A model generated the notes under the pieces. The model saw only the letters and a program-made list of their open reading frames with translations. It was not told where the DNA came from and searched no databases. The translations under genes were made by a program, and so were the position numbers. A DNA stretch of 64,000 bases from a virus (lineage: Duplodnaviria; Heunggongvirae; Uroviricota; Caudoviricetes), in the IMG/VR virus record IMGVR_UViG_3300049044_000033, positions 222,796-286,795 of that record; one strand, written 5' to 3'. Each line of letters opens with the position of its first letter. The first letter of the stretch is position 1. Below, piece after piece: positions 7,106 through 61,672 of this stretch.

Positions 7106-7183
7106 AAATGCCTCTAGGGTTCTGAAAAGGGTATATAGACTACCGGAGTAGACTGTCTACTTATCTCTTCAGAACCCAGAGGT

Positions 7184-12594: not shown

Positions 12595-12845
12595 TGGCTA
12601 CAGTTCACAGAAACGGTATTCCTCCTAAGCGTCTACTTCACAAGAAGATAGAGACCTTCTCCGATATGGAATTCAAAGAAGATCAGATTGTTGATTGGTT
12701 GAAAGAGAACATCGATCACCGTGTCCAATATGACTACACAGTATTCAACGGATCTAAGGGTAAGCTCAACCGAACAATTGAATTCACAGTTTGGTTCCAG
12801 ACCAAGCAGGATGCTGAAAAGTTCTCCGAGGTATGGAAGAAGTGA
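12594..12845 (+). CDS. array member 10 (divergent C-terminus)
   Basis: 83 aa, ATG in TAATG overlap. C-terminus QDAEKFSEVWKK keeps the D-A-x-x-F...W spacing. Confidence 0.45.
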   Translation: MATVHRNGIPPKRLLHKKIETFSDMEFKEDQIVDWLKENIDHRVQYDYTVFNGSKGKLNRTIEFTVWFQTKQDAEKFSEVWKK

Positions 12846-13138
12846 ATACTAGGATTTATATCGTTGATCGTGTTGATCAAGTAAAGTGGTATGTGGATGA
12901 AAGCCAAGCTACCACCTTCACACTTCAGCTTGAAGACAATCACAAAGCCATCAGGGAGTGGCTTGAGCTCATGACGCAAGATATTGTGGTTATCAGCGGC
13001 CAAGGCGTTATGCCTCGCGTGGGCACGGCTGATCATCCCACAAACGTCTATGCTGCTATCCAGCGCAACCAGTATCGTCTATATTTCGCCAACCCCGACG
13101 ACGCGATGCTATTCAAACTCAGATGGGGTGGTGAATAA
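12833..13138 (+). CDS. FKLxWGG-family small protein, array member 11
   Basis: C-terminus DDAMLFKLRWGGE. Stop overlaps the next ATG (TAATG). Confidence 0.55.
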   Translation: MEEVNTRIYIVDRVDQVKWYVDESQATTFTLQLEDNHKAIREWLELMTQDIVVISGQGVMPRVGTADHPTNVYAAIQRNQYRLYFANPDDAMLFKLRWGGE

Positions 13139-13320
13139 TGCCTAGTTGTAATCTCTATAAAGTAGCCCTACTGAGTGATAGAGTCGAGGGTCCTAATGTG
13201 CTGGTATTCTACGCCTATCACATGAGCGAAGCCAAAGCCAAAGCCGCAGCAATTCGTTGGGGACAAGCTCAACATCCTGGCGCTAATATCAGTGTGGATA
13301 GGATTGACAAAGCCACATAA
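13138..13320 (+). CDS. array member 12 (divergent, C-terminal extension)
   Basis: 60 aa. AKAAAIRWGQ resembles the family motif, followed by a 20 aa tail. Confidence 0.4.
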   Translation: MPSCNLYKVALLSDRVEGPNVLVFYAYHMSEAKAKAAAIRWGQAQHPGANISVDRIDKAT

Positions 13321-13356
13321 GACATTAATGTAGGCACATGAGCTTAAGAAGCTCTA

Positions 13357-13743
13357 ATGTTTAATCTTTGGCGGCCAGTGAAACTCAGCTATCATCCTTT
13401 CCTCAGTCCCTTCCGCCCTTATAAGGTTGTGTGGCGTCTTCCATATGACCTTGTAAGTTCGCACGAACGTGGATCTCCCTATGGGGAAAGGAATATTCAA
13501 GGTCATCGTTGGGTGATTCGGCGAGATGCTCAGGATTGGCTAATGGCTAGGGCTCCAGCAAAGTGGCTCAAGATCTTCAACATTGCATCTGTGAAATTCT
13601 ACATCAGAAGTGGCTTGATTCCTTTCACCCTCAAAGCTAATAATGGGCGATTGGAAATGGGAGGGAAGCCTCCTGCGATATGGTTTGCTCGAAAGGCAGA
13701 TGCTTTGATTTTTAAGTTGACCTATGGTGTTAGGGATGAATGA
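13357..13743 (+). CDS. FKLxWGG-family small protein, array member 13
   Basis: C-terminus DALIFKLTYGVRDE. Confidence 0.5.
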   Translation: MFNLWRPVKLSYHPFLSPFRPYKVVWRLPYDLVSSHERGSPYGERNIQGHRWVIRRDAQDWLMARAPAKWLKIFNIASVKFYIRSGLIPFTLKANNGRLEMGGKPPAIWFARKADALIFKLTYGVRDE

Positions 13744-17835: not shown

Positions 17836-18075
17836 CTAACTTGTCAACTTGATGACTATCGCATAGCGACGTTCAATCTTCTCGATTGCTTCCAAGTAAG
17901 GCTTAGCTGCCTCGTCTGCGGCTTCCTTTTTGGCTTGATTCATCTCGCGCTTGAGATCCTGAATCTGACTCCAAAGAAGACGAGCCGCCCCTTCTTCCGC
18001 TAACGCACCTGCTTCGCCCGTAGAAGACGACATCAATTCCTTACGGACCTTTTCTAGAACCGAACCTGTCTTCAT
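17836..18075 (-). CDS. hypothetical small protein
   Basis: 79 aa, coiled-coil-like. Start overlaps the upstream stop. Confidence 0.4.
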   Translation of the reverse strand: MKTGSVLEKVRKELMSSSTGEAGALAEEGAARLLWSQIQDLKREMNQAKKEAADEAAKPYLEAIEKIERRYAIVIKLTS

Positions 18076-18650
18076 ACAAACTCTGCGTTAACTCCGCATT
18101 GACGGAGGTAGTTGACGCTTGACATGATCTTAGTCTGCCAAGACGATTGCTCAGTGCCTTCTGGCTTCACGGGTAGCGTGATATCTACCCAGTTACCTAC
18201 TGCGCTCTCAACCGCGTGTTTGGCATCAACCAATCCCATACCAGTCACAGCGCGAAGTTCCTTGATCGCATTAATCTTCTGGTACGAGTTATTGTGTGGA
18301 TCAATGCGGATCCGCAGATGACGAACGTTTGGGTATTTGTTGGACACAATGCCGAGAATCAAACGAGCCTTCCAGTCCTTACCCAAGACAGGAACCAGTG
18401 CCTCCATAGCATCAACCGCAGTATCGCGAGTGTAATGCTGCTTGATAGCCCGTAAGAACGCCGCAGAAGCCTCATCGAGGAATGCGAAACCGTCATCGGG
18501 TGTATCTGGATCAATCAGTGGCACAAAAACTCCTTTACCTGCACTCTCATTAGCACCTAGACTACCTGTGTCAACCCTTTCATATAAGTATTGTGCTGGA
18601 AAGAATAGCTTGTTAATATGAAGTATGGTTTGGACGTTTAAACAACGCAT
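18072..18650 (-). CDS. protein with ribosomal bL12 (L7/L12) C-terminal domain
   Basis: C-terminal about 70 aa, KINAIKELRAVTGMGLVDAKHAVESAVG...VKPEGTEQSS, matches the bL12 CTD signature ([25 protein letters not shown]). The N-terminal about 120 aa are unrelated. 5' end uncertain. Confidence 0.6.
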   Translation of the reverse strand: MRCLNVQTILHINKLFFPAQYLYERVDTGSLGANESAGKGVFVPLIDPDTPDDGFAFLDEASAAFLRAIKQHYTRDTAVDAMEALVPVLGKDWKARLILGIVSNKYPNVRHLRIRIDPHNNSYQKINAIKELRAVTGMGLVDAKHAVESAVGNWVDITLPVKPEGTEQSSWQTKIMSSVNYLRQCGVNAEFV

Positions 18651-19912: not shown

Positions 19913-20632
19913 TTACTTCTTAAAGTTCTCAATACAAGCTTTAATCTTGTCTATTGACAAGTTTCCAACATCAACGCTGAATACCTTACGGATACTATCA
20001 GCTGCTTGGGCAAAGAAGAGATCTTCCGTCATCGTCATTGGGTTAGTTTCTACTGGATCAACATCGCCGTAGTAGACGGCAGAATTAGCGCCATGTTCGA
20101 AGCATTCAACGCTCACTAGACGAACGTCAGGATTGACCGCATAACGACCGAGCTCGCCACTCTTCATCTTCTCAAGAAGCTCAACCGACTTCTCGTAAAC
20201 CAGCTTGGCGGTCAATTCACAGCCAACACCAGGAACAATTCGGAGAGCACAGAGACGACCGCGTTCGTAGGGCTTGGCAATCGTGCTATTGCCAACCTGG
20301 TCAGTTTCAACGCTAGACGGCTTCACACCATCATAGTCATCAATCGTAGATGCACGAGCAAGGGTCTTAAAGGTATCAAGAGCCGGATCATCCTCAGCAA
20401 CCAAGATCGTATGATCGAACATATAGTCCAGGTATTCCTTAATAGGCTTCATTCCGCCGAAATCAAAACACCAGTTCTTTTCATCAAGCGTCTCAGATTC
20501 CCAGACGAACTTGAAGCCTAGGCTGTAGCCGTGAAGGGTAGAGCAGTGTGAGTGATTAGCTTTCCATTGACGGAAGCAGCAAGATAGTCCACGGTCGTTG
20601 CCGTAGGTTTTAGTAGATTGAAACTTTGCCAT
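19913..20632 (-). CDS. T-fold protein, QueD/6-pyruvoyl-tetrahydropterin-synthase-like
   Basis: 239 aa. HSHCSTLHGYS resembles the CxxxHGH zinc motif of PTPS/QueD. Confidence 0.45.
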   Translation of the reverse strand: MAKFQSTKTYGNDRGLSCCFRQWKANHSHCSTLHGYSLGFKFVWESETLDEKNWCFDFGGMKPIKEYLDYMFDHTILVAEDDPALDTFKTLARASTIDDYDGVKPSSVETDQVGNSTIAKPYERGRLCALRIVPGVGCELTAKLVYEKSVELLEKMKSGELGRYAVNPDVRLVSVECFEHGANSAVYYGDVDPVETNPMTMTEDLFFAQAADSIRKVFSVDVGNLSIDKIKACIENFKK

Positions 20633-22755: not shown

Positions 22756-23087
22756 TTGCCACCGAACGTGAGCTTAAACATCGCTGCGATATCCCCTTTA
22801 GACTTGGGAAAAAGGAAGAAGGTGAAATCCCGATAAGAGCTATCAAGCATCATGAGAACTGGCAGATTATGCTGTTCATAAAACTCAGTAGCCTCTGGTC
22901 CACAAATCCTATCGGCCGTATCCGGATAGTCCGTTCTCGGTCGAAGGACAGTGAGTTCGTATCCCTTAATTGGAACGACATGGAATTGTTGCTCCATAGT
23001 GGATACGAACTCAGTATAATCGCAATGGTCAGTCATTCGACCTCCAACAGTTCTTCCTTCGACTTGGACCAGCGCGAGAAGGTCCAA
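22752..23087 (-). CDS. FKLxWGG-family small protein (second cluster)
   Basis: C-terminus AAMFKLTFGGK. Confidence 0.5.
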   Translation of the reverse strand: MDLLALVQVEGRTVGGRMTDHCDYTEFVSTMEQQFHVVPIKGYELTVLRPRTDYPDTADRICGPEATEFYEQHNLPVLMMLDSSYRDFTFFLFPKSKGDIAAMFKLTFGGK

Positions 23088-24187
23088 GCCTGCTTCATGC
23101 GATTCAGCCTCTGACCCATTGCCGGACCAGGCTTCATACCAGTTTCCAGCAGGTCCTTGCCCGAAACCGGGAAGGTCGGGATCACGAAGTTCCTCGCATA
23201 GTCGGCCAGGATAGTTTCACCCTGAACTTCAGCAAAGCTTACAACATGATCCCGAGGAAATTCGTCCCGAGTCAGCAGCACTTCAATCTTCTGCTCATCC
23301 AGGAAGACACCCCGATTGCGGATCATATTCCGAACCTTGGCTTCCTCGTGCGAGCTCATCTTCCAGAACTTGAAGAACTTCTCTTCGTCAGAGCTGGCAA
23401 CCAGTGTCGACAGAGCAGCCAGGGCATCATCGGCGCGAGACAGTTCAGCAGGATTGAAGCGGAACAGACCCAGTGCCCGATTAACCCGAGTCTTGAAGAT
23501 TGCATCAACAATGCGAGTCCGACCCGGCATCTTGGGATCCAGCAGCTTCTGCATTTCCAGCCAGAACCGCTCGACACTAACGACGTTCAGCTTATCCAGC
23601 ACCTCACCCTCGGCGAAGATATCCAGCGTCTCCTGATCCATCTTAGCATCGAAACGGGCTGCGAACCGGAAGAAGCGCAGAATACGCAGGTAGTCCTCTT
23701 CGACCCGCTTGCGCGCATCGCCTACGAATCGAACCACACGATTCTTCAGATCTTCCTGGCCCTTGAAGTAGTCGAATACGTTACCTTCAAAGTCCATCGA
23801 CATTGCGTTGAAGGTCAGGTCACGTCGCTCTGCATCCTCTTCAAACGACCTCGTGAATTCAACCTCAGCATGACGACCGTCAGTCTCGACGTCGATCCGC
23901 AGCGTCGTAACTTCGAAGGGTTCTTTGTCCACAACCAGCGTAGCCGTGCCGTGCTGGATACCAGTGGGAATAAAGCCGAACTTGTTGGTATCGGCGATCA
24001 CCTTCATCTCATCCGGCGTTGCGTCGGTGCAGAAGTCCACATCCTTAGCTTCGACGCCCAGCATGGCATCGCGGACACAACCGCCCACAAAACGAATCTG
24101 GAAGCCTGCTGCTTCAAAAGCAGCACCCAGCTTGTTCGTTTCCGGGGTCATCAGTTTGTCCAGCACGTCGATCTCCTTGTTGTTCAT
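23033..24187 (-). CDS. tRNA nucleotidyltransferase (CCA-adding enzyme) / poly(A) polymerase family
   Basis: 384 aa. GGCVRDAMLG...DVDF head-domain motif of class II nucleotidyltransferases. The plus-strand 322 aa ORF opposite is a shadow. Confidence 0.8.
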   Translation of the reverse strand: MNNKEIDVLDKLMTPETNKLGAAFEAAGFQIRFVGGCVRDAMLGVEAKDVDFCTDATPDEMKVIADTNKFGFIPTGIQHGTATLVVDKEPFEVTTLRIDVETDGRHAEVEFTRSFEEDAERRDLTFNAMSMDFEGNVFDYFKGQEDLKNRVVRFVGDARKRVEEDYLRILRFFRFAARFDAKMDQETLDIFAEGEVLDKLNVVSVERFWLEMQKLLDPKMPGRTRIVDAIFKTRVNRALGLFRFNPAELSRADDALAALSTLVASSDEEKFFKFWKMSSHEEAKVRNMIRNRGVFLDEQKIEVLLTRDEFPRDHVVSFAEVQGETILADYARNFVIPTFPVSGKDLLETGMKPGPAMGQRLNRMKQAWTFSRWSKSKEELLEVE

Positions 24188-27764: not shown

Positions 27765-28208
27765 CTATATGGTTAAGCGAAACAAGACCATATGCTTCGG
27801 GGTATCGGACAATGGGGAATCAATCATCTGAACAATCAAAGGGGTGACCTTAATAGCTCGTTCGCTACAAACTTCATTGCTTCTCTTTAGGTCATTGCTG
27901 ACCATACCCAAATCAATCCAGCGACAATAACCCATATCTGTAAAGCTACTAGGTGATACCTTTATAGCATAGAGGTAAGCGTGAAGATACGCAGCAACTT
28001 TAGATTGCCCATGCTTCTCGTGAAGTTCCCAGAGGTTCCTACCCAATCGAGTGCAGGTCTTCTTCAATCGACCTTTCTCGTAAGGCGTGATACCTAGAGT
28101 GTTTACAGATACCTCTTCACATTCCATCTTGTCCTTGATATCAAGAGCTAGGTTACGGATAAGACGGAGGTCTTTGATAATAGTCTTATAGAGCTCTGCA
28201 ATATCCAT
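27765..28208 (-). CDS. hypothetical protein (147 aa)
   Basis: ORF. Its stop overlaps the upstream gene's start. Confidence 0.45.
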   Translation of the reverse strand: MDIAELYKTIIKDLRLIRNLALDIKDKMECEEVSVNTLGITPYEKGRLKKTCTRLGRNLWELHEKHGQSKVAAYLHAYLYAIKVSPSSFTDMGYCRWIDLGMVSNDLKRSNEVCSERAIKVTPLIVQMIDSPLSDTPKHMVLFRLTI

Positions 28209-28699
28209 TACCGGTATCCCAATTCCTTGATATCATTGCGCACCTGAGTCTCAATCTCGCCTAAGTCGTTAGAACCTTGCCAAGTGGATCGGCTCAAAGC
28301 CCGAGGATCATTGGCCGCCAAGCCAATACCCCAAACTCTGTCCCATGGGGACGCTTCCACTAGAGTCGTGCCATCCGTAGCCAGTAGCCAATTCAGGCAA
28401 TTGGTATCCTGAGTGAACTTGGCAAAGTTGGCTCGATATACGATCAGCTTCCGGTTAGCCTCCCATTTGGACGACACAAAACCTCGTACCAAGCGACCAG
28501 TGGCTTTCTGAACCTTGGGATTGTCACTTTTCATAATGATGTCAAGGGCGTCATCATCACCAAACAGTCGGGCTTTCTCAGCCATCATGAACTGTTCCGC
28601 GCAGTTGTATTCCACACCCTCTATGGTAAACCAGCTAGGATACCACTGGCTTCCAGGTCCACCATAGAAGAATGTGAATTGCTCGCTCACTGGCACCAA
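28208..28699 (-). CDS. NADAR / YbiA-like (DUF1768) domain protein
   Basis: FFYGGPGSQWYPSWF...CAEQFMMAEKARLFGD...LVEASPWDRVWGIG matches the NADAR family signature. Confidence 0.75.
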   Translation of the reverse strand: MVPVSEQFTFFYGGPGSQWYPSWFTIEGVEYNCAEQFMMAEKARLFGDDDALDIIMKSDNPKVQKATGRLVRGFVSSKWEANRKLIVYRANFAKFTQDTNCLNWLLATDGTTLVEASPWDRVWGIGLAANDPRALSRSTWQGSNDLGEIETQVRNDIKELGYR

Positions 28700-29130
28700 C
28701 CTGCCCGCTTGCCGCCAATATAGGGACGAGCATAACCACGAGCAATCAACATATTAGTGAGGCTCTCTCCGCCCACGAACACATCAGCATCAACGCGCCC
28801 GCCATACTTGTCCCACTTGAGGTTGGTCAGCGTAACCTTGCGACCAGCAGTGAGGATCACGCGAGTTGTAAATGCCTTGGCCGCTTGTGCGTTATACTTT
28901 TCTGAAGGGCACTTGCCGCGCATCTCAGGGGTATCAACACCACGAACCCGGACGCCAATCCGGCTCAGTTCAGGCGGCAGACCAGTCATCTTAATGTAAA
29001 AGGTATCTCCGTCATAGATACCCACAACATCGTAGGTATAGGTCGGAGCAGCGATTGCTGGGGTTGCGACAAAAGCCGCAAGAGCAAAAAGGGCGTTACG
29101 AATAATCTTCATAACACCCTTTTTACACAT
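28687..29130 (-). CDS. secreted staphylococcal-nuclease-like (SNase/thermonuclease) protein
   Basis: Signal peptide, then VVGIYDGDTFYIK...RVRGVDTPEMRGKC...YGGRVDADV...LIARGYA, the SNase GDT...R.GIDTPE pattern. Confidence 0.65.
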   Translation of the reverse strand: MCKKGVMKIIRNALFALAAFVATPAIAAPTYTYDVVGIYDGDTFYIKMTGLPPELSRIGVRVRGVDTPEMRGKCPSEKYNAQAAKAFTTRVILTAGRKVTLTNLKWDKYGGRVDADVFVGGESLTNMLIARGYARPYIGGKRAGWCQ

Positions 29131-29152: not shown

Positions 29153-30352
29153 TTAGCGGGCATTAAGCTGTGCCTGTCGCTGTGCTGCCGAGGCCAGCGA
29201 TTCCTTGAGCTTCTGCTCTGCTGCGATCAAACGCTGCTCAGCATCGGCGCGCTTGGCCTTACCTTGCTCTGCGAGATCGATGGACTCATTGATCGTAGCG
29301 ATCAAGAGTTCATTAGCCTGTTCCGCTGCCTCAACATCGAAGATGCCGCGCTCGATTTCCTTGCGGGCAACTGCGTTGCTAGTATTGAGCTGCTTCGCGG
29401 ACTGAACGATCAGCTCGTTGGTGAAATCAGTAGCCGTCTTAGTGGCCTTGCCGGCTTCTTCTGCGCGCCATGCTGCAATGGAAACAGCCATAGTGCGCTT
29501 CCAGAGGGGCAAAGTATTGAGCAGCTGACTCTGGATCTTCTCTGCGAGACCCTTATCATTTGCCTGGACGATGCGGATGCTAGGTAGCGCCTGGATGGTC
29601 AGGTTACGCGTCAGCAAGAGATCAGCCCGCTTGCGTTCCAGAGAATCACGAGCTTCGGTCAAGTCCCGCAGATCCTGCACATCTGCCATATCACCGCTGG
29701 CATCGGACTTAGCCTTGGCGGCCGGGATCATATTCGTGTTAACGTCCTCGAGCAGGTAGTCCATAGCGGCAATCTGCTCATCGAGCGAATCCAGCAGACC
29801 CAACGTGGCTTCGTATTGCTTGTCGAGTGCCACAATATCCTTGAGCATCTGGACGCGATGCCCTTCAAGAACGTTGTAGGTCTTGAGAATCTGACCTTCG
29901 ACCGTCTGGTAGCGATCCAGGAACTTCTGCAGGACGCTGGCCTTACCTAGCAGCTTTTGGAAGAAGCCAGGCTTCTGACCAGTAGCAAGAGCCGCAAAAT
30001 CCAGCCCCTTCATTTCGCGGACCATCTGGTTCATCGCGTCGCCGACTGGACCAGTATCCTTGGTACGAACGCCCTGGAGCATTTGTTCGGAAACTTGCGT
30101 AGTTGCCTTCTGTGCTTCAACGCCGAAGGTGATAATCGACTGACTATCCTTGAGGTTGATCTTGCTTGCGAGCTCCTTGGCACGTTCGCGCGACACCTTG
30201 TTGGGAATACGTCCGGCCTGACCATTGAGGCTGACAATATCCTGAGATCCGATCTCAGGCACGGTCAGAGCATTTTCAGCCGTCGGTGTGGGGAGAAGTT
30301 CACCGGTCAACGACGGGGTCGCCGTACCGATCTTTGTAGGATCACTTGCCAT
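29153..30352 (-). CDS. TelA-like (toxic anion resistance family) protein
   Basis: 399 aa alpha-helical protein. Family-level resemblance only. Confidence 0.4.
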   Translation of the reverse strand: MASDPTKIGTATPSLTGELLPTPTAENALTVPEIGSQDIVSLNGQAGRIPNKVSRERAKELASKINLKDSQSIITFGVEAQKATTQVSEQMLQGVRTKDTGPVGDAMNQMVREMKGLDFAALATGQKPGFFQKLLGKASVLQKFLDRYQTVEGQILKTYNVLEGHRVQMLKDIVALDKQYEATLGLLDSLDEQIAAMDYLLEDVNTNMIPAAKAKSDASGDMADVQDLRDLTEARDSLERKRADLLLTRNLTIQALPSIRIVQANDKGLAEKIQSQLLNTLPLWKRTMAVSIAAWRAEEAGKATKTATDFTNELIVQSAKQLNTSNAVARKEIERGIFDVEAAEQANELLIATINESIDLAEQGKAKRADAEQRLIAAEQKLKESLASAAQRQAQLNAR

Positions 30353-30354
30353 TT

Positions 30355-31071
30355 TTAGATTCCCTCGTTGTTGAGTCGGTTCTTCATAACAGTCATGTTG
30401 ACATCAAAGTCCATGACATCATTTGCCAAAAGCTTGTCGAGCAGCTTTTGGAAATTATCATCGATGGTGTCGAGCATTTCGTCGAACTGTGCCATCTGCT
30501 TCTGTGCTTCGAGATTGCGAGCACCGGTCCGGCTCAGCTGAGCATAGCCCTTGACTAGTGTGATCGTTTCATCCAAGTAACTGTTGAGCCAGCTTTGAGC
30601 CAGCAAAACGTCCTTGGGATCAACGCGGAAATCCTCGATGATCTTACGACCAATAGCATCAATATGCTTGATGCGTCGGATTGTGTTGGGGCTCTTGATC
30701 TGGGTAGCTTCCATGAGGATCCGGTCCAGCTTGTCACTGCCCATCTTGATCGCTTCCACGACCAGCTTCGTATCCACGCCCGAAGTACCTGCTGCGATAT
30801 CGTCAATATGCCGGTAGAGATCCTTAATGTCTTGTGCGGTTGCCGGGCGCCGACCAGGGAAGAAGTACCAAATCCCTAATCCAGTTGCTGCGCTCAACGG
30901 GCCAGCTAGTGCGAGATCACCGATAAAGGAAAGTGGGAAAGCAGCCATGCCGCTTACAAAGACACACGTTGCGCCTCCAAATGCTGCTAACTTACTCACT
31001 AGATCTTTGTTCATCGGTTCCTCGCTTAACACTGGCTCCTTTATAGCAAGGTTTACCAATGTGTCTACCAC
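30355..31071 (-). CDS. hypothetical membrane-associated protein (238 aa)
   Basis: ORF with hydrophobic N-terminal segments, coupled to its neighbours. Confidence 0.45.
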   Translation of the reverse strand: MVDTLVNLAIKEPVLSEEPMNKDLVSKLAAFGGATCVFVSGMAAFPLSFIGDLALAGPLSAATGLGIWYFFPGRRPATAQDIKDLYRHIDDIAAGTSGVDTKLVVEAIKMGSDKLDRILMEATQIKSPNTIRRIKHIDAIGRKIIEDFRVDPKDVLLAQSWLNSYLDETITLVKGYAQLSRTGARNLEAQKQMAQFDEMLDTIDDNFQKLLDKLLANDVMDFDVNMTVMKNRLNNEGI

Positions 31072-31129
31072 TGATTAGAAAAGAAAGGGCGACATTGCTG
31101 CCGCCCCTTCTCCTATAGGTTAGTCCAAC

Positions 31130-32869
31130 TTAGTCTTCTGGGTTAATACCAGCAAGCTTCTGGATCTCAGCCTTCTCGCTAGGAGCAAGAGGAGCCTCGA
31201 TTACCGTCTTAGCTACGCGACGTGCTGCTGGCTTTGCAACCTGCGGAGCACCCACGACTGCCAGACCTTCATCATCCAGAGGAGCAGCAACCGATTCGAC
31301 CAGACCATTAAGGCCACGGCTCAGGTCAACGCCAAGCTCGCGAGCCAGTTCGTCAACAACCGGAACCTGCAGTCGGTAGCCCAGCATCGAGTTGGTCAGG
31401 TCAGTAGCGAGGTTTCCTGTAGGAGCCGACTGACCGCCGAAACCTTCGCCATTGGAATGACCGCCCAGGCCACCCATCTGAACTACGCGGATGCTGTCGA
31501 CCTTCTCCATCGGCTTGGTCATCTTTTCCATGATGGCCGGCAGAGCTTCAATCAGAGCCTTGCGCATGTTGTATGCCATCTGGGCAGAGCTTGTCACGTT
31601 AGCAGCTTCGTTGAGGGCGCGCTGACCTTCCGATTCAACTTCGTAACGCTTTGCGTCAGCGTCGATGAGGCGTTCCTTGGCCTGTGCGCTTGCGTCAGCA
31701 GCAGCCAGTTCAGCTTCAGCACGGATACGAATACCCGCAGCTTCTTCCTGAGCCTTAGTCTCAGCCGCAATAACAGCAACCTTCTGGCTACGTTCTGCCT
31801 GTGCCTGTGCCTCAACAGTCTTCACCGCTTCAGCAGCCTTAACAGCTTCCGCGCGAGCAGCATCAGCAGCCGCACGGGCCTTGGATTCCTGCTCCGACTT
31901 CTCAGCAACCGCAATACGTGACTGCTGGCTAGCAATCTCGAGAGCCTGCGCTGCTTCAGTTTCGGCTACCTGGATAGCGCGCTTCTGTTCGACGCGAGCC
32001 TGCTCAGTAGCACGAGCAGCTTCAATTTCTGCCAGATCAGATTCACGCTTACGGTCGGCGCGGGTCTGGGCCAGTTCAGCTTCCTGCTGGGCACGACGGG
32101 TTTCAACTTCGCGCTCCTGCTCCAGGGTAGCGAATTCGTCCTGCTGCTTAATATCCAGCGAGCGCTTGTTGGCTTCGAAGTTCTTCTGCTCAATCGCAAC
32201 GCGGTTGTCAGCTTCGATGTCGTTACGCTCCTTCTTGCGAGTCTCAGTAACCTGAGTCAGCTTCGCAAGACCTTCAGCGTCGAAGGCGTTGTTGGGGTTG
32301 AAGAATTCAACCGAAGTCTGGTCCAGACCAGTTAGCGACACCGATTCAAGTTCCAGACCGTTCTTGCGCAGGTCTTCAGCAACAGTTGCCTGAACCTTCT
32401 GAACAAACTCAGCGCGCTTTTCGTGAAGGTCCTGCATATCCATACCAGCTGCCGCAGCACGGAGAGCGTCGATGAACTTGCCTTCAATTAGCGAAGCCAG
32501 CTGATCAGGAGCCAAGGTGCGGCGACCAAGCGTCTGTGCCGCAGCCGCAATGCTCTGCTCATCTGGAGCAACACGAACATAGAACTCTGCCTTCACGTCA
32601 ACGCGCAGACGGTCCTTAGTGATCAGCGAATCACGACCCTTACGTTCGACACCGAGACGCAGCGTCTGCATGTTGATGGGGATGGTTTCGTGGAACACTG
32701 GCAGAATAACAGCGCCACCGTCCTTAACGACCTTCTGTCCACCCATACCAGTACGGACAAAAGACTGTTCCTTGCTTGCGCGATGGAACATTTTGGTCAT
32801 GATCAAACCGATGACCATGAAACCTACTAGGAAGACGCCTAGCAGAATACCTGCAAATTGAAGAGTCAC
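31130..32869 (-). CDS. SPFH/band-7 flotillin-like protein (YqiK-like)
   Basis: 579 aa. N-terminal TM, SPFH core (VRTGMGGQKVV...), then a long Ala/Glu-rich repetitive coiled coil (AEAELAAADASAQAKE). Confidence 0.75.
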   Translation of the reverse strand: MTLQFAGILLGVFLVGFMVIGLIMTKMFHRASKEQSFVRTGMGGQKVVKDGGAVILPVFHETIPINMQTLRLGVERKGRDSLITKDRLRVDVKAEFYVRVAPDEQSIAAAAQTLGRRTLAPDQLASLIEGKFIDALRAAAAGMDMQDLHEKRAEFVQKVQATVAEDLRKNGLELESVSLTGLDQTSVEFFNPNNAFDAEGLAKLTQVTETRKKERNDIEADNRVAIEQKNFEANKRSLDIKQQDEFATLEQEREVETRRAQQEAELAQTRADRKRESDLAEIEAARATEQARVEQKRAIQVAETEAAQALEIASQQSRIAVAEKSEQESKARAAADAARAEAVKAAEAVKTVEAQAQAERSQKVAVIAAETKAQEEAAGIRIRAEAELAAADASAQAKERLIDADAKRYEVESEGQRALNEAANVTSSAQMAYNMRKALIEALPAIMEKMTKPMEKVDSIRVVQMGGLGGHSNGEGFGGQSAPTGNLATDLTNSMLGYRLQVPVVDELARELGVDLSRGLNGLVESVAAPLDDEGLAVVGAPQVAKPAARRVAKTVIEAPLAPSEKAEIQKLAGINPED

Positions 32870-32885
32870 TTAATTCTCCTATGAA

Positions 32886-33530
32886 TTAGATCTTACGCAC
32901 CATGTGGGCGTGATTAATTGACCTATGTGGACCGGTTAGCACCGCAGTTTCACCCACATCAATATTTTCTTCACCATCGGCAAAGACATAAACGTAATGA
33001 TCAGTACCATACTGATCGGTTACCCGGATTGAACCACTCTGGGTATTTGAGACTGGTCCGACAACAATAGGACCGGATAGATTAGATAAACTTTCCAGAG
33101 ATACCGCGGATGTAATATCTCTAGGCATTAATTGTGCAGCCACAATCGACCCCCAACGAACAAAGGGGAGCGTCAATGAGAACACAATAGGACAACTGAG
33201 CAACATAGGAGCATAGGCACCTGTCAGGCCTTCATAGACCCACTGTGCGCTATATCCAAGGATTGTGAACACTGTGCTGAAGATCACAAGGAAGATCATC
33301 ACTGGAACACTTCCAGGATTAAACCAACCTAAGATGTGAGAGTCTACTTCTAAGTAGTCGGGAATGCCGTTCCCGTTCAGATCCGCAGAGAAATCTATAT
33401 CATGATGGAATGAGCTAAAGCCCAAAATCAATCCGATGATTTCAAGAACCAAAATAGCACCGAGGAGACACGCACTCACAAGGAATGGTGTGTTGGCTTG
33501 TGCTAGTAAGAAAGTAGAAATGTTGTCCAT
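32886..33530 (-). CDS. NfeD-like membrane protein (YqiJ-like partner of flotillin)
   Basis: 214 aa. Multiple TM helices plus a C-terminal beta-rich segment, immediately upstream of the SPFH gene in the same orientation, as in yqiJK operons. Confidence 0.5.
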   Translation of the reverse strand: MDNISTFLLAQANTPFLVSACLLGAILVLEIIGLILGFSSFHHDIDFSADLNGNGIPDYLEVDSHILGWFNPGSVPVMIFLVIFSTVFTILGYSAQWVYEGLTGAYAPMLLSCPIVFSLTLPFVRWGSIVAAQLMPRDITSAVSLESLSNLSGPIVVGPVSNTQSGSIRVTDQYGTDHYVYVFADGEENIDVGETAVLTGPHRSINHAHMVRKI

Positions 33531-34052: not shown

Positions 34053-34124
<72 letters not shown>

Positions 34125-34170
34125 CATGTTGTGTGCTCTCTTTGTAGCACCTACATACCTATTTAGCAAT

Positions 34171-41524: not shown

Positions 41525-42160
41525 TTAGACTATAGGGGTGGACCATTCTCGACCACTCAGCGAAAGCGTTAGTTGAACACCGAAGTTGTTCCTAAACGCA
41601 AGCCAAGTTGTTCCAGTGTCACTACCTGTTAGATCATTACGGGTGAGCTGGAAATGTGCCGACGAACTTGTTGGTAGATTGGCAGTACCGCCTGGCCAAT
41701 TCATTGCGCACATCGATCCAGGGGTAAGATTGACCACGGATGCATCTGGGTTACTGGGATGGACACATACTGTCATAATACCCATTAGCTTCACAGTGCC
41801 ATTAGCATCAGAGAGACTAAAATCATAGGTAGCAAAGTCTCGTTCATGGTGAGTGAATAGAGGAATAACACTCGTCATCTGATTATTAGCTAGACACTTA
41901 ACAGCAACCAGCGGTCCGTGATAATAAACATCACCACCAATACTACGCTGAACATCTAGTTCAGTCAGAAGCTTAATATTTTGGTAAGGATATGATTTCC
42001 TACCAGAGACGCTTGGGTGATTTTGCGCACCAATGAATACCTCTCCGGTATCCGTTGTCATGCCAATCTCACCATCAGCTAGAGCAGTAGGGAGTTCCCC
42101 ACTTGTTCCTCGCCTATGCTGAACCCTCGAGATTTGGTAAACAGCCATGTTATCCTCCAA
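41525..42160 (-). CDS. hypothetical protein (211 aa)
   Basis: ORF. Confidence 0.45.
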   Translation of the reverse strand: MEDNMAVYQISRVQHRRGTSGELPTALADGEIGMTTDTGEVFIGAQNHPSVSGRKSYPYQNIKLLTELDVQRSIGGDVYYHGPLVAVKCLANNQMTSVIPLFTHHERDFATYDFSLSDANGTVKLMGIMTVCVHPSNPDASVVNLTPGSMCAMNWPGGTANLPTSSSAHFQLTRNDLTGSDTGTTWLAFRNNFGVQLTLSLSGREWSTPIV

Positions 42161-51025: not shown

Positions 51026-51271
51026 ATGGGCGATCTATTTAAAAGTGTAGTCGAAATGATCGCGAAGGGCGAAGCAGGTTCACTGACGGCTATCCTTCTA
51101 GCTATCATCGGGGTTCTGGGATGGTATTGCTACCGTCTTATGAAGCAGGTGGAAAAGAAGGACGAGAAGATCTACAAGATCATCGACGAATATTCCAAGA
51201 ACAACATTACCATCACTGATGCGTTGAATGGTCTAAAGACTGTGTTGATCGAGATTAAGGCAAAGCTCTAA
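51026..51271 (+). CDS. small membrane protein
   Basis: 81 aa, one TM helix (SLTAILLAIIGVLGWYCY). AAGGAG RBS 8 nt upstream. Confidence 0.45.
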   Translation: MGDLFKSVVEMIAKGEAGSLTAILLAIIGVLGWYCYRLMKQVEKKDEKIYKIIDEYSKNNITITDALNGLKTVLIEIKAKL

Positions 51272-52938
51272 TGTGGTTCAATAAGGATAAAAAGGCTAAG
51301 AAGCAGCAAAGGGAAGCAGTTCTAAAAGCTGCGATGGAATCTAGCGAAGCTTTGGAAAAGGCCGCTAAGGGGACCATGAATCTAGCCGAAGATGTTACTA
51401 AGACTCTTCAGAGCCGAATTGATGATTATGCCCAGCAGATTGACCAAACAGCCCGCCTCCTAAGTGATGCCCTCATGCTTGTTGATGATCACGGAATCAT
51501 TGAAAGCTTCAACCAAGCAGCTGAAAGCATGTTTGGTCATGCTCGTCGTTCAATTAGAGGCAAGAATCTTTCTACCCTTTTTGAATTCCAACAAGACACA
51601 AAGATCACCCCAGACTTCATGGAAGAGCTGATGAACAAGGTGAGCGAGAATGATCTCTCTGCTACTGTTCATTATGAAGACTTTATGGGAGTCCGCAAGG
51701 ATGACACGAAGTTCTATGTTGATGTAGGCGTAAGCAAAATCATCCGTAGCAATTCAAAAGTCAAGTATATCATCCTGGTTCGTGACGTAAGCCAAAAGGT
51801 CATGAATAGCAAGATGCTAGAAGAATTAGCTCAGAGGAACCAAGAACTCCTAGCAACTATCGATGCTTCAAATACTGGGTTCATCATTATTAGTCCTGAT
51901 GGTAGTGACTTCAAGATCAACTTCGTGAATGAAGGCTTTAGTCGCCTAACTGGTTATTCGAGAACTCAAATACGTAACATGAGTCTAATGGACCTTCTTG
52001 GCATAGAGCAGACATTCTGGTCAGTGCGCCGCAGTCTATTGGAGCACGTAGAAGCACGTCATGAAGTTCAGCTAGAAATCGGCAACTGTCAGACTATTTG
52101 GTTCGACGTTCAGATTACACCGGTCTTTCAGAATGGTGTGTTGAACCAGTGGATTCTAGTATTCTATGATACTACCGCACTCAAGAAGGCCTATCACGAC
52201 CTACGCAAAAGCGAGTCGCACTTTAAGGCATTCAGTGACGCTAGCTCTGAAAGTATGTTGATTCACAACTTTGGCCAGGTGATTGATTGGAATGATCGAC
52301 TCAATAAGCTGACCGGCTACTCTGACGAAGAGATCGAGCAACTCGGTCCACTAGATTTGGTTCATCCTTTAGAGCGTGAAAAGATTCGTGACGAAGTTCA
52401 TCTTCTAGGTAGTAACAGCTACGAAACCCTCTTCATGACCAAGCAGGGAGACGTTCGAGAAGTAGCAGTGAATAGTCGTTCAATTGAATGGGAAAATGCT
52501 GACGCTCGTATTGCTATCGTGCGTGATGTAACTGAATACAAGGATATCGAGACTCAGCTAAAAACAGCTAGAGAGCGTTACCGCACTGTCATTGATAACA
52601 CAATCGACATGGTGATCTGCTTTAATGCCAATTTCGAGATCACTTTTAGCAACCAGACCTTCCGAGACTACTATGATGTAGAACTCGAAGATATTAATGG
52701 ATTCTCCCTCCTAGAGATTATCCCAGAGCCTGATCACCGCAAGTTCATGGAGTATATGTTGAGCATTACTCCTGATATGCAAGTTCGTCGTGGAATTCAT
52801 CGCGTTCAGCGTCACGATGAGGTTAGAATGCAGGATTGGATCGATCGTGGTATCTTTGATGAAGATGGCACCTTGATCGAAATCCAAAGCATTGCTCGAG
52901 ATGTAACGAGTCTACTTCCTCCCCCAAATCAGACTTGA
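51271..52938 (+). CDS. multi-PAS domain protein without recognisable output domain
   Basis: 555 aa. About four PAS-like modules (for example LMLVDDHGIIESFNQAAESMFGH, FIIISPDGSDFKINFVNEGFSRLTGYS, MLIHNFGQVIDWNDRLNKLTGYS, MVICFNANFEITFSNQTFRDYY). ATG overlaps the upstream stop. Confidence 0.65.
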   Translation: MWFNKDKKAKKQQREAVLKAAMESSEALEKAAKGTMNLAEDVTKTLQSRIDDYAQQIDQTARLLSDALMLVDDHGIIESFNQAAESMFGHARRSIRGKNLSTLFEFQQDTKITPDFMEELMNKVSENDLSATVHYEDFMGVRKDDTKFYVDVGVSKIIRSNSKVKYIILVRDVSQKVMNSKMLEELAQRNQELLATIDASNTGFIIISPDGSDFKINFVNEGFSRLTGYSRTQIRNMSLMDLLGIEQTFWSVRRSLLEHVEARHEVQLEIGNCQTIWFDVQITPVFQNGVLNQWILVFYDTTALKKAYHDLRKSESHFKAFSDASSESMLIHNFGQVIDWNDRLNKLTGYSDEEIEQLGPLDLVHPLEREKIRDEVHLLGSNSYETLFMTKQGDVREVAVNSRSIEWENADARIAIVRDVTEYKDIETQLKTARERYRTVIDNTIDMVICFNANFEITFSNQTFRDYYDVELEDINGFSLLEIIPEPDHRKFMEYMLSITPDMQVRRGIHRVQRHDEVRMQDWIDRGIFDEDGTLIEIQSIARDVTSLLPPPNQT

Positions 52939-58881: not shown

Positions 58882-59913
58882 TTATATTAGACGTTGCCGC
58901 CTTACACCTATTTCTAGCTTATTCTTTGTCATGGCATCAATAATTGACCACACCGTGTAGAGTTTTCCGTAAGCTTTTACGGCATCCGCAGCGTCCTTGA
59001 TGCCCTGGTCCCAGCGAGGGAAGCTAACGTGCCAGCCTTCACTGAGCGCAACATCAACAAGCTTACCGCCTTGTTCTACGCGATCGGGAACAACGATGAT
59101 CTTTTTGCCAGTTTGATTAAGCCAGCGTGCCTGGTCAGGCATGACTTTGTCACCTAGCATCGCTATACCATTTATCGCAATACCGTCGAAGGGACCTTCA
59201 CAGATGAAGATATATTCCCAGTCATTCTTGATTGCGTCGGTATTGAATAGATAGCGAGGCTGAACCTCACTGAAGTACCGCATAGGTGACGAATTGTCGA
59301 TCACACGAGCAGTCCAACCTACGACTTCGTTTTCCCAGTAGAAGGGAATAATGATTCGTCGGTTGAGACTGTTCGCTTTGTTTGGTGTCCAGTAGAAATC
59401 CCCACCTAAGAGGATGTCATCTCCTCGACTAGACAAATAGGTCAGTGCGTCTTGGAAATCCGGATCTTCCAGTCCATGCTCTAACCAATACGAGATCGGC
59501 TTGGCATCCTTAGGCAAAGCTACTGACTTGAACGTCAGTTTCTCTAGGAGCTCACGAGGGGCTAACGAGATAGCTTCGCCCTTGTTGAGCATATCCTTTC
59601 GGAGTTCATCAACATAGAAGCCCAGCCAGTCGAGTTCCTCCTTGGGCATTCCCAGCCACTGAAAATAGCTGCGCCATTTAGAAGTTAATCGACTGCCCGG
59701 AGACCAAGACGTCTTAAATCCACAGTTGAAGCAGGAGATTGTTGTTCGACCATCAAAGTCAAACATCAAGCCTCCACGCTTCTTAGTATCAGGACGAGAC
59801 TGACCGTTGTGAATACAGCATGGTCCATTAAACCTCATCCACCTACTAGGGGTGACTTGCGCCCTAGATATGTGTTTGATCAACGCATCGTAGACAAGGG
59901 TTAAATGGGACAT
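58882..59913 (-). CDS. DNA primase (zinc-binding plus TOPRIM, gp61/DnaG-like)
   Basis: N-terminal Cys cluster CCIHNGQ...CFNCGFK and TOPRIM IFICEGPFDGIAI. Adjacent to and coupled with the helicase gene. Confidence 0.8.
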   Translation of the reverse strand: MSHLTLVYDALIKHISRAQVTPSRWMRFNGPCCIHNGQSRPDTKKRGGLMFDFDGRTTISCFNCGFKTSWSPGSRLTSKWRSYFQWLGMPKEELDWLGFYVDELRKDMLNKGEAISLAPRELLEKLTFKSVALPKDAKPISYWLEHGLEDPDFQDALTYLSSRGDDILLGGDFYWTPNKANSLNRRIIIPFYWENEVVGWTARVIDNSSPMRYFSEVQPRYLFNTDAIKNDWEYIFICEGPFDGIAINGIAMLGDKVMPDQARWLNQTGKKIIVVPDRVEQGGKLVDVALSEGWHVSFPRWDQGIKDAADAVKAYGKLYTVWSIIDAMTKNKLEIGVRRQRLI

Positions 59914-61616
59914 TAGAAATCAAACAATCCATTGTTGACAATCTGAGCTTCTTCCTTTTCCTTAGGATTAGCCAAAATAGTCATCTTCTCTTCAGTTTTA
60001 ATAGCCTTAACGACATTTCGGTGAACCTTAATGTCAGGCATATCGAAGTCCACTAGAACCTGCGTTCCCTTTTCAGCATTGTCGCTTGCTAGGTAATTAA
60101 GGACCTTACGATTCCTTTCCAGGTAATCGTAATAGTTCTCAACCTGAAAGGCATCTTCCACTACACCCTTAAGCTCTAGCAATTGAGCTGGAACTTTAGC
60201 AGGATCACCTTCGTCGTAGAGATCCTGAGACTCATAAACCCCTTCCAAGTGAACTTGGACGTTGTGATTCATGAGCATCGCGTAGGTCACAACGTCCCAT
60301 GTCGATGTGAACTTAGGATCCACATTAACACAGATGTCACCCATTGTCAGCTTTTCGCCGATTGCGGTGCGAACAAAACGTGAACCTTCCACACCATCTA
60401 GACGTGCATGAAACATCTCTTCCAAGACATTAAGGAAAGGACGATCAGCCTCTGGCCCACGTGGAGGAAGAGGAATCTTCTCACCATTTGCATCAAGCTT
60501 GTATTTGACTCGACCTTTACCCGTACCTAGCATCTCATGACCAATGAGCTCAACTTCGTGCTCATCATCTTCATTGATCTTACCCATGTAGGTATTAGTT
60601 GGCAAGTAATGACGTCCGTCTAACTTCTCGCCCTGAATACTCCAGCTTTCCTTATTCAAGTTGTAGCCGAGGAAGACTTTTCCATAAGCTGCTAGAGTGA
60701 ATGGAGAGCTCACATCATAGGAGATAGTGAAGTTTGGATTTATGCTCTCACGTACCTTGCGCTGGATAGTTGTGTAGACACAACCATGCTGGAACTTACC
60801 AACACCTAAGAAGTGCATCCAATCCTTGTCCTGGAGAAGACCATCTTCCCGCATATCCAAAATACGTCCAAGAGCCATCTCAAAGTTTTCCTTGTGATGA
60901 CTTGCTAGCGACCAACCCTCAAAGGGATAGTGCTTGACATTTTCATACCAGTTCTTGGATTCGTGCTTGTTACGACCCTGCACAACATTCAAAAACTTTG
61001 TAGCCCCCGGAACCCGGTTAGCCACAAAATAATCATTGTTGATCAAAGTCTGTAACATACAGGTGTAGAAGAGACGATCGTTAATATCGTTGATATCTCC
61101 ACCGTTCTTAATGATCAGAGCATCAAGTGCGTCTTTGTTTCCAGAATCAACAACTGCTGGATCCAAAGGATGTTCTAGACGCTTCAAGTGCTGGTCAATA
61201 TTACCAAGACCGATACCACCAGTAGGAAAGTCGAGAACCATTGACCAATCACAGTTGGCTTCCATCCAGCGCATCATCTTCTCGCGGGTCTTATCACCCT
61301 CGAACTTGATTGCACCAGTCTGGATCTGGAAGCCTCCCGAGTCACCCAACACTGTGGTCGGAGCGCGATCTCGTCCAGTAACCATATCCTTGCGATGCGT
61401 CACAGCATTGCCCTTAGCTGCCTGTCCTGCAGAATACAGAGCACAAGGTAGGTAGAACAAAGAAGTGGTTGGATCAAAGAAGTTTAGTTCTTTGCGAGGG
61501 ATAGGTGGTTCCCTCTTAGGGTTTTCCGCATTCACATAGCGGACATACATTTCCGATATGGCCGGAGTGAATCGCGCATAATCGCGATAACGCTTGGAAT
61601 AATCAATTCCGGACAT
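59913..61616 (-). CDS. tRNA-guanine-transglycosylase (TGT) superfamily protein, DpdA-like DNA transglycosylase candidate
   Basis: 567 aa. VLGDSGGFQIQ matches the TGT catalytic DSGGFQ and HFLGVGKFQHG matches LxGVGxP. Sits beside the replication genes. Confidence 0.55.
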   Translation of the reverse strand: MSGIDYSKRYRDYARFTPAISEMYVRYVNAENPKREPPIPRKELNFFDPTTSLFYLPCALYSAGQAAKGNAVTHRKDMVTGRDRAPTTVLGDSGGFQIQTGAIKFEGDKTREKMMRWMEANCDWSMVLDFPTGGIGLGNIDQHLKRLEHPLDPAVVDSGNKDALDALIIKNGGDINDINDRLFYTCMLQTLINNDYFVANRVPGATKFLNVVQGRNKHESKNWYENVKHYPFEGWSLASHHKENFEMALGRILDMREDGLLQDKDWMHFLGVGKFQHGCVYTTIQRKVRESINPNFTISYDVSSPFTLAAYGKVFLGYNLNKESWSIQGEKLDGRHYLPTNTYMGKINEDDEHEVELIGHEMLGTGKGRVKYKLDANGEKIPLPPRGPEADRPFLNVLEEMFHARLDGVEGSRFVRTAIGEKLTMGDICVNVDPKFTSTWDVVTYAMLMNHNVQVHLEGVYESQDLYDEGDPAKVPAQLLELKGVVEDAFQVENYYDYLERNRKVLNYLASDNAEKGTQVLVDFDMPDIKVHRNVVKAIKTEEKMTILANPKEKEEAQIVNNGLFDF

Positions 61617-61672
61617 TAACTGCCTCTCTCTTTATAGGGTTAACCACACTATAGGCTAACCCTACTGGACAG

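Follow-up and report, generated by a model that had tools for sequence, protein, structure and literature searches.

The window, i.e., the whole 64,000-nucleotide stretch of a Caudoviricetes record from IMG/VR that was analyzed here, carries on its minus strand a gene for a DpdA-like protein of the tRNA-guanine transglycosylase (TGT) superfamily and a gene for a QueD-like protein, with the following features:

59913..61616, minus strand: DpdA-like (TGT-superfamily) transglycosylase gene, an intact 567-aa ORF with an ATG start
61623..61630, minus strand: Shine-Dalgarno sequence GAGAGAGG, 6 nt upstream of the DpdA-like ATG, read directly from the sequence
59911..59915, minus strand: TAATG (read directly from the sequence), shared by the TAA stop of the DpdA-like gene and the ATG start of the primase gene downstream
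19913..20632, minus strand: phage-type QueD (6-carboxytetrahydropterin synthase-like T-fold protein) of 239 aa, PF01242, phrog_2389

The first-pass annotation had placed a TGT-family ORF beside the helicase-primase, and both neighbours were recognized as such: the adjoining primase matched phrog_47 (E 3e-26), while the DnaB-like helicase matched phrog_19 (E 3e-73) as well as PF03796 (E 3e-17). The TAATG overlap suggests that the DpdA-like gene is co-transcribed and translationally coupled with the replication genes. The same DpdA-like/primase gene order was present in Phosso, a cultured relative with a complete genome collinear with the window, and in window-clade contigs, and in most lineages the DpdA-like gene was located beside DNA polymerase and clamp.

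The motifs from which the enzyme had originally been proposed, DSGGFQ (residues 92–97) and LGVGK (residues 270–274), lie in one ORF in the order known from TGTs, and each occurs a single time when the whole window is translated in six frames (expected 0.005 and 0.085 per shuffled window, respectively). Both are therefore present as described, but the catalytic role given to LGVGK did not hold, as this is a conserved TGT strand motif, and the nucleophile position instead corresponds to D301 in SYDVSSP, aligned by hhalign on MFD280CVLP of the Z. mobilis TGT. A nucleophile at GVGKxxD (H277) was considered and rejected, as H277 is not conserved and both the DpdA study (PMC10164549) and the Z. mobilis TGT alignment point to D301. 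Catalytic roles were assigned after the essential residues of DpdA (D95, D130, and D256; PMC10164549), by which D92 is predicted to be the general acid/base, D129 to recognize the base, and D301 to be the nucleophile. We inferred the positions of D92 and D129 from motif identity (DSGG[FY]Q; M.LD.P vs. AFDECTP) and strand position; as hhalign of the protein to TGT or DpdA3 was weak (8–28% probability), the residue mapping relies on motif order, local alignment, and predicted strands. Across 184 distinct members, down to approximately 28% identity, D92, D129, and D301 were invariant in all non-gapped sequences, and F/Y96, Q213 (177/184), G214, and H451 (184/184) were likewise conserved.

The predicted structure is a (beta/alpha)8 barrel of TGT type with a helical C-terminus, resembling TGT/DpdA structures more than other TIM barrels, and its best structural match was DpdA. 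Foldseek neighbours included a Motura protein (E 1e-10) and R9TGF0 of Vibrio nt-1 (E 5e-8), although the latter may not be the DpdA2 of nt-1. Vibrio nt-1 encodes a validated DpdA2. A C-terminal, tRNA-binding PUA domain, as in archaeosine TGTs, was found neither by Pfam search nor in the predicted structure. The structural zinc site (CxCx2Cx22H) is degenerate: C429 (166/184) and H451 are left, 22 residues apart, and the first two cysteine positions are occupied by T/K and G/K in the 184 members. The Gly-Gly loop, by which TGTs read the 7-substituent, is replaced as well (FEGWSLAS against FDGYAVGG of TGT).

No Pfam match was obtained for the window protein at E-values up to 0.1, hence neither PF01702 nor PF20314 (DUF6610), nor for the Phosso and PA5oct homologues at E-values up to 0.01, and none of 120 homologues carried a precomputed Pfam domain. 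PHROGs and NCBIfam HMM searches of the 567-aa protein gave no match, and neither did phmmer or a 40-sequence profile against PDB sequences. An exhaustive search returned 1,135 clusters at 50% identity, with at least 594 confirmed IMG/VR loci; the homologue of the likewise cultured phage PA5oct (QCG76197.1; EST35_0316) shares 30% identity with the window protein. The DpdA-like protein is a very divergent member of a large, unnamed family outside the standard annotation libraries, and it falls outside every named DpdA subfamily by HMM and profile tests. In the literature searched, a DpdA-type enzyme was neither annotated nor named for the PA5oct group and the large environmental jumbo phages, among which the window is placed.

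The gene at 19913..20632 had been described as a T-fold QueD/PTPS-like gene, an identification confirmed by PF01242 above the gathering score (E 1e-11, 45 bits vs. a cutoff of 22.4) and by phrog_2389 “QueD-like” (E 3e-36). The protein has the motif FRQW...HC..LHGY, an insertion of 33 aa, and approximately 50 additional aa at the C-terminus; it is 33.5% identical to the QueD of Cellulophaga phage phiST (E 2e-27), and in tblastn it matched QueD of Iggy, immuto_2-6A, Motura, and RHEph phages, while a syntenic QueD is present in Phosso. The canonical CxxxHGH and three zinc-binding histidines are not found, the protein reading C-S-T-L-H-G-Y with Phe at the first His, and its score for the NCBIfam equivalog TIGR03367 (28.5 bits) lies below the cutoff of 89. 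This motif variant is common to phiST, Phosso, and MA9V-3, and since the protein matches the QueD of phages such as Iggy and immuto_2-6A, whose DNA is proven to be modified, the variant is probably functional. It is the sole 7-deazaguanine biosynthesis gene within the window.

The remaining pathway genes had been expected elsewhere in the genome. FolE, QueE, DpdL, the glycosyltransferase described below, and QueC were not found by tblastn and HMM searches in the window and its 10-kb extension (72 kb read), and the window's own contig was not among the matches of a metagenome scan with the Phosso QueE; FolE and QueE were, however, found in relatives. FolE, QueE, QueD, and DpdL are physically linked to the DpdA-like family in many phage lineages, and DpdL, FolE, or QueE lay at most 10 kb away at 38 of the 45 IMG/VR loci that extend 9 kb or more on the downstream side. 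The gene orders are variable (e.g., DpdL-TGTlike-GT-FolE-QueE or GT-TGTlike-FolE-QueE). The linked FolE matched PF01227 (E 1e-37), the QueE homologues matched PF04055 and bear the JGI name 7-carboxy-7-deazaguanine synthase, and DpdL was recognized by its match to phiST DpdL and the published HRHxF motif. Within the clade of the window, contig 3300034073_003340, reached with a closer QueE probe, carries an 80%-identical TGT-like gene together with the biosynthesis module, and the Phosso genome contains single copies of the TGT-like gene, DpdL, GT, FolE, QueE, and QueD. From these relatives, we infer that FolE, QueE, and DpdL are also encoded on the window's own contig of 462,455 bp. QueC, another of the genes initially listed for the pathway, was not found in the complete Phosso genome (two QueC queries, E < 0.1), where DpdL is present instead, so that the preQ0-derived base first suggested is replaced by a predicted dDG-type 7-deazaguanine. 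Annotation together with family, QueC/D/E, and FolE searches revealed no second TGT/DpdA candidate in Phosso.

Every module additionally contains a glycosyltransferase of GT-B type that forms an in-register fusion with DpdL, and often a phosphoribosyltransferase (PRTase), neither of which is accounted for by the plain dDG pathway. The module of the PA5oct lineage further encodes a cupin dioxygenase, a HIT protein, and a GalE-like epimerase. Neither the GT-like nor the “cluster 3” family of partners had a significant sequence relative in the PDB.

We consider it likely, with a probability of roughly 0.8, that the ORF product is a catalytically active member of the TGT/DpdA superfamily, a DNA-guanine transglycosylase that installs a phage-made 7-deazaguanine and thereby makes the DNA restriction-resistant. 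Its initial assignment as a TGT-family, DpdA-like enzyme is supported by DpdA being the best structural match, by the invariant aspartates, by the lack of a PUA domain, and by the physical linkage of the family to the pathway genes, also in the clade of the window. By analogy with TGT and DpdA, the enzyme would flip a guanine out of the phage DNA duplex and into the pocket of its barrel, whereupon D92 would serve as general base and the free 7-deazaguanine base would be installed. This base would be made from GTP by the phage FolE, QueD (the window gene at 19913–20632), and QueE, and is most likely 7-deazaguanine or a derivative rather than preQ0, given the lack of QueC and the presence of a T-fold protein of DpdL type. 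Given its apparent coupling to primase and helicase, the enzyme would be made with the replisome and act on newly replicated DNA; the outcome would be phage DNA resistant to host restriction, from which the modification probably serves to hide the genome. Hutinet et al. (2023) argue that a DpdA-type transglycosylase is encoded by every virus with 7-deazaguanine DNA, and all phages known to make such DNA have a DpdA (PMC10516641). The DNA of PA5oct is resistant at five G-containing restriction sites and behaves as G-modified (PMC12191111). A reconstitution of DpdL and DpdA in E. coli, tried by others, failed.

A tRNA-guanine transglycosylase of queuosine or archaeosine type, modifying phage or host tRNAs as part of a jumbo-phage translation toolkit, is very improbable here. 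The first-pass annotation had named PUA domains and a lack of biosynthesis genes as signs against a DNA-modifying enzyme; no PUA domain was found, and the pathway genes are linked. The zinc motif conserved in TGTs is degenerate, the closest structure is that of a DNA-acting DpdA, the gene is apparently coupled in translation to the primase and stands beside DNA polymerase and clamp in most lineages, and the preQ0 or preQ1 used by tRNA TGTs could not be produced by a linked pathway without QueC. Furthermore, PA5oct DNA behaves as G-modified, and the names that phage DpdAs bear in BFVD stem from automatic annotation.

A TGT fold employed in a different reaction, e.g., by a DNA glycosylase confined to base excision, in an exchange of some base other than a 7-deazaguanine, or in an action on a nucleotide pool for which the linked PRTase would supply or recycle substrates, is also unlikely, if slightly less so. 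The divergence of the family beyond the reach of any HMM, the replaced Gly-Gly loop, the lost zinc site, and the co-travelling PRTase, GT-B glycosyltransferase, cupin, and HIT protein, all outside the described 7-deazaguanine DNA pathways, would fit such a role, but the residues mapped to the base-exchange mechanism, three catalytic aspartates and a stacking aromatic, are invariant, and the tightest and most widespread partners are 7-deazaguanine biosynthesis genes. In addition, all known makers of such DNA have a DpdA (PMC10516641), for which Phosso yielded no other candidate in the searches given above. The latter result, in the sense that no canonical TGT/DpdA partner was found there, also speaks against a protein without catalytic activity that serves, like QTRT2, in an accessory or structural role, and against a gene in decay; with active-site residues invariant across at least 184 sequences, 1,135 clusters at 50% identity, an intact ORF, and a good ribosome-binding site, we regard this as extremely improbable.

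Beyond the DNA-guanine transglycosylase itself, it is possible, though doubtful, that the family is the insertase of an uncharacterised jumbo-phage guanine hypermodification that goes further than plain 7-deazaguanine. In that case, the DNA could carry a 7-deazaguanine that has been hydroxylated and glycosylated, and guanine freed from the DNA could be turned back by the PRTase into GTP to feed the pathway. To our knowledge, DNA with a glycosylated 7-deazapurine has not been described, and the unexplained glycosyltransferase and PRTase may define a new DNA base. The DpdA-like family would fill the place of the missing transglycosylase in the PA5oct group and large environmental jumbo phages, and its PA5oct member is a concrete candidate for the gene behind the “modified G” of this therapeutic phage. 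As Pfam, PHROGs, NCBIfam, and PADLOC-style annotation all miss the family, 7-deazaguanine DNA modification would be under-counted in genome surveys. The family also represents a natural TGT-fold protein that dispenses with the structural zinc site.

Compared with known systems, the window protein shares with the Z. mobilis TGT (PF01702) the fold, DSGG[FY]Q, LxGVGK, the (F/Y)D nucleophile motif, and the HN of the last helix, whereas its predicted substrate is DNA instead of tRNA, the zinc subdomain and the Gly-Gly loop are altered as described above, no HMM match exists, and the genomic context is the replisome rather than queuosine biosynthesis. The bacterial DpdA (the preQ0 insertase of Salmonella Montevideo, PDB 7ui4) is only 13% identical to the window protein, which is approximately 150 aa longer, has other insertions, and lacks a Pfam TGT match; the bacterial enzyme has the zinc site CxCx2Cx22H, of which the DpdA-like family keeps the last Cys and the His only. 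A DpdB-type ATPase partner, as in the bacterial Dpd system, was not seen for the family, and as the linked pathway is without QueC, its base is unlikely to be preQ0. DpdA1 and DpdA2 (e.g., phage 9g, CAjan, Vibrio nt-1) and the archaeal-virus DpdA4 have the same predicted role, post-replicative insertion of a 7-deazaguanine into viral DNA, with undetectable sequence similarity to the window protein; according to the literature, phages with DpdA1 or DpdA2 carry a QueC or Gat-QueC gene, unlike the partner set of the DpdA-like family, and membership in DpdA4 was rejected as no PF20314 (DUF6610) match was present. The phage DpdA3 (Cellulophaga phiST gp042/CGPG_00065; Hutinet et al. 2023) has the same partners, i.e., FolE, the QueD subtype, QueE, and DpdL without QueC, as well as a similar motif order (...QTL.N...QG...HFLGxG...S.D...), and both families are reached by remote-homology methods only. 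Membership in DpdA3 was nevertheless not supported (hhalign 28% with the single sequence and 12% with the profile, over approximately 100 columns; no tblastn cross-hits). DpdA3 is a minimal barrel of approximately 260 aa (259) with LDNGAGD, whereas the window protein has 567 aa and GDSGG[FY]Q, and a GT-B glycosyltransferase and a PRTase accompany the DpdA-like family in addition to the partners of DpdA3.

The open reading frame (ORF) at 59913-61616 on the minus strand was confirmed as real: GAGAGAGG forms its ribosome-binding site 6 nt 5' of the ATG, and its TAA stop and the start codon of the primase gene directly downstream share a TAATG; the primase gene is followed by a DnaB-like helicase. 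In the first-pass annotation, this 567-aa ORF had been singled out for two tRNA-guanine transglycosylase (TGT) motifs and for its place beside the helicase-primase genes, and both observations were borne out by the primase (phrog_47, E 3e-26) and helicase (phrog_19, E 3e-73) matches, and by DSGGFQ (residues 92–97) and LGVGK (residues 270–274), each found a single time when the window is translated in all six frames (expected by chance per shuffled window: 0.005 and 0.085, 200 shuffles).

The protein had zero matches in Pfam, PHROGs and NCBIfam, and none among PDB sequences by phmmer or with a 40-sequence profile. Its family comprises > 1,600 matches among the candidates scored in a 5.8-billion-protein collection (many on ~ 460 kb contigs, and none of the matches listed with a Pfam domain), 1,135 clusters (50% identity) from an exhaustive HMMER scan, with E < 1e-30 for 434, and at least 594 confirmed IMG/VR loci. 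Among cultured phages, homologues annotated as "hypothetical protein" occur in Sinorhizobium phage Phosso (52% identity), in PA5oct-group jumbo phages of Pseudomonas (30% identity) and in one Vibrio jumbo phage.

In a Foldseek search of the PDB, E < 1e-3 was reached by TGT-family chains only. The DNA 7-deazaguanine transglycosylase DpdA ranked first among the structural matches:

Structural matches of the 567-aa protein, by rank and score
1. DNA preQ0 insertase DpdA (7ui4; 309 residues, 13% identity), 20.1
2. QTRT2, 18.5
3. Bacterial TGT, 17.7
4. Archaeosine TGT, 15.2
5. Cap10, 14.5
Remaining TIM barrels, all ≤ 11.9

Among viral models, the protein's own family came out on top, followed by proteins of Achromobacter Motura, Vibrio nt-1 and Dinoroseobacter R5C, all of them phages known or predicted to carry 7-deazaguanines in DNA. 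A tRNA-binding PUA domain, which had been named beforehand as a sign of a tRNA-modifying enzyme, was found neither by Pfam search nor by structure prediction, and the C-terminal region is helical.

According to the DpdA structure paper (PMC10164549), three Asp residues of DpdA are invariant and essential: Asp95 as general acid/base, Asp130 for base recognition and Asp256 as nucleophile. Phe99 has a stacking role there, and the zinc site has the form CxCx2Cx22H. The Z. mobilis TGT sequence was checked against PDB 1enu and aligned to the family profile, with a weak score (probability 8%) and a local alignment only:

Local alignment, family / Z. mobilis TGT
FEGWSLA / FDGYAVGG
HFLGVGK / YLMGVGK
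SYD301VSSP / MFD280CVLP

The register of the third stretch places D301 at the putative nucleophile position. Based on motifs, this local profile alignment and predicted strand ends, we infer D92 of DSGG[FY]Q as the putative general acid/base, F96 as the stacking residue and D129 as the base-recognition Asp. Across 184 distinct family members, including the PA5oct-like branch at 28–31% identity, D92, D129, D301, G214 and H451 are invariant wherever not gapped and Q213 is kept in 177; the zinc motif has lost all but its final Cys (C429, 166/184) and, 22 residues on, its His (H451).

The protein is predicted to work like a DpdA, and by the tests run here it falls outside the named DpdA subfamilies: it matched neither PF01702 nor PF20314 in Pfam, hhalign against DpdA3 gave 12–28% probability over ~ 100 columns, and DpdA3, a barrel of 260 aa, has LDNGAGD where this family has DSGG[FY]Q. 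No further named subfamily was found in the literature searched. Iyer et al. 2021 ascribe to PA5oct a "deazaguanine synthesis/incorporation system", the protein not being named in the text, and a 2025 preprint (PMC12191111) reports five restriction enzymes to which PA5oct DNA is resistant; for this phage it lists QueE and PTPS, without a transglycosylase.

ORFs from 80 IMG/VR loci, Phosso, PA5oct and the window were clustered, and the PA5oct-like loci were found to share a conserved run:

Conserved run of PA5oct-like loci, in order
1. DNA polymerase
2. Homologue of the Phosso sliding clamp
3. TGT-like gene
4. 177-aa protein without assigned function
5. 131-aa T-fold protein with the DpdL signature LxxxHRHxF
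6. 365-aa protein
7. FolE (PF01227, E 1e-37)
8. Phosphoribosyltransferase (PRTase)
9. QueE

The signature is that of DpdL according to Hutinet et al. (PMC10516641), and a search with the DpdL-like protein retrieves the published DpdL of Cellulophaga phage phiST; the QueE-like proteins carry a Radical_SAM domain and the JGI name 7-carboxy-7-deazaguanine synthase. In 38 of the 45 loci whose downstream sequence spans 9 kb or more, DpdL, FolE or QueE lies within 9–10 kb downstream; the remaining seven are of the Phosso/window type, in which the TGT-like gene is relocated next to primase and helicase. Other lineages have other orders (DpdL-TGTlike-GT-FolE-QueE and GT-TGTlike-FolE-QueE, GT being a glycosyltransferase), and since gene order varies between lineages, the linkage is more than inherited synteny.

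Several QueE homologues of these phages (430–645 aa, e.g., P0259, P0324, P0338) bear Hint/intein domains (PF07591, PF14890), the radical-SAM enzyme being interrupted by inteins. PA5oct EST35_0314 (8906-9652 of the PA5oct piece L002) is annotated as "structural protein (ESI-MS/MS)", a label that may be misleading, its family profile matching the annotated Phosso sliding clamp (E 2e-75). The DpdL-like protein has at least 8,000 matches, and all of the 120 matches listed, Tara Oceans entries included, are ≥ 70% identical to that of Phosso; the candidate pathway appears extremely common among environmental viruses.

The T-fold gene reported earlier at 19913-20632 proved to be a PTPS/QueD gene:

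19913-20632, minus strand: QueD, 239 aa (PF01242, E 1e-11; phrog_2389, E 3e-36)

It is 33.5% identical to phiST QueD (E 2e-27) and also matches QueD of the Iggy, Flavobacterium immuto_2-6A, Motura and RHEph phages. This phage subtype keeps the catalytic Cys and has two of the three canonical zinc histidines replaced (E. coli H16 to F, H33 to Y); the window protein has an additional 33-aa insertion and a ~ 50-aa C-terminal tail, absent from Phosso, phiST and MA9V-3 QueD.

The first-pass annotation had expected FolE, QueC, QueE or other queuosine-pathway genes elsewhere in the genome. QueD was the only pathway gene in the window and its 10-kb extension, and the complete Phosso genome was searched directly, where each of the following is present in a single copy:

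TGT-like gene, 323 kb
DpdL, 150.4 kb
GT, 150.7 kb
FolE, 152.4 kb
QueE, 155 kb
QueD, 372 kb

FolE and QueE were recovered in Phosso, and QueC was absent from this genome. Phosso and the window are collinear for the TGT-like gene, SPFH, TelA, CCA enzyme, Smr, QueD, topoisomerase subunits, ClpX and IF3. A contig from the clade of the window, IMG/VR 3300034073_003340 (435,856 bp), has the same gene order; its TGT-like gene shares 80% identity with that of the window, and ~ 300 kb away lie clamp-DpdL-GT-FolE-PRTase-QueE, which suggests that the module also lies on the window's own 462,455-bp contig. Module and TGT-like gene were found apart on 3300031088_000008 and _000033 (416,714 + 44,279, ~ 460 kb) and on 3300034072_002211 and _002212 (277,444 + 181,816, ~ 460 kb), each pair from one metagenome and probably two parts of a single genome.

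Other genes seen in the window were the following:

28208-28699 and 28687-29130, minus strand: overlapping NADAR-domain (PF08719, E 3e-43) and staphylococcal-nuclease-like genes
29153-33530, minus strand: TelA (E 1e-88), PF10112 "Halogen_Hydrol", flotillin/SPFH and YqiJ-like membrane protein
3873-5719, 18072-18650, 23033-24187 and 34053-34125, minus strand: translation/proteostasis genes (IF3, ClpX, ribosomal L7/L12 C-terminal-domain-like fragment, CCA-adding enzyme, tRNA-Thr(GGU))
41525-42160, minus strand: 211-aa protein with Mtd_N (major tropism determinant N-terminal) domain (E 1e-10)
51271-52938, plus strand: 555-aa protein with at least four PAS-domain stretches matched and no recognisable output domain

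NADAR enzymes remove the ADP-ribose that DarT toxins attach to guanine in DNA, and this one may be an anti-defence gene likewise concerning guanine in DNA. The TelA block looks like a membrane-stress module, with SPFH and TelA in the same position in Phosso; the PAS protein recurs at the equivalent position in Phosso and a Logan contig, and the Mtd_N protein could be a receptor-binding protein of the retroelement-diversified kind.

The neighbour of DpdL belongs to a divergent GT-B-type glycosyltransferase family (~ 360 aa; 8 of 24 members match PF00534, best E 3e-6), and a PRTase lies between FolE and QueE in both the window clade and the PA5oct lineage:

GT, always adjoining DpdL: 12363-13454 of the Phosso piece L085 (overlapping the DpdL stop); 6270-7415 of locus L391; 11611-12672 of L002
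PRTase: 9462-10016 of L391; 9516-10016 of locus L390; 13940-14374 of L002

The PRTase might activate the modified base or recycle guanine freed from DNA. Recurrent in the PA5oct lineage are a cupin "cysteine dioxygenase"-like protein (phrog_4786, E 6e-38), a HIT protein and a GalE-like epimerase; together with the GT and PRTase, they would allow for a base that is elaborated further. DNA is not known to contain a glycosylated 7-deazaguanine.

The DpdA-like reading of the first-pass annotation is supported by DpdA (7ui4) as top structural match, by the conserved putative catalytic Asp and by the pathway gene linkage; the TGT-like gene most likely encodes the insertase by which a jumbo phage places 7-deazaguanine in its DNA, and its family represents a widespread, unnamed DpdA variant without the zinc site. 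Phage phiST carries 7-deazaguanine (dDG) in place of all G (PMC10516641), and its gene set, FolE, QueD, QueE and DpdL without QueC, is the same as the one found here, which makes 7-deazaguanine itself or a base derived from it the most likely predicted substrate, rather than preQ0.
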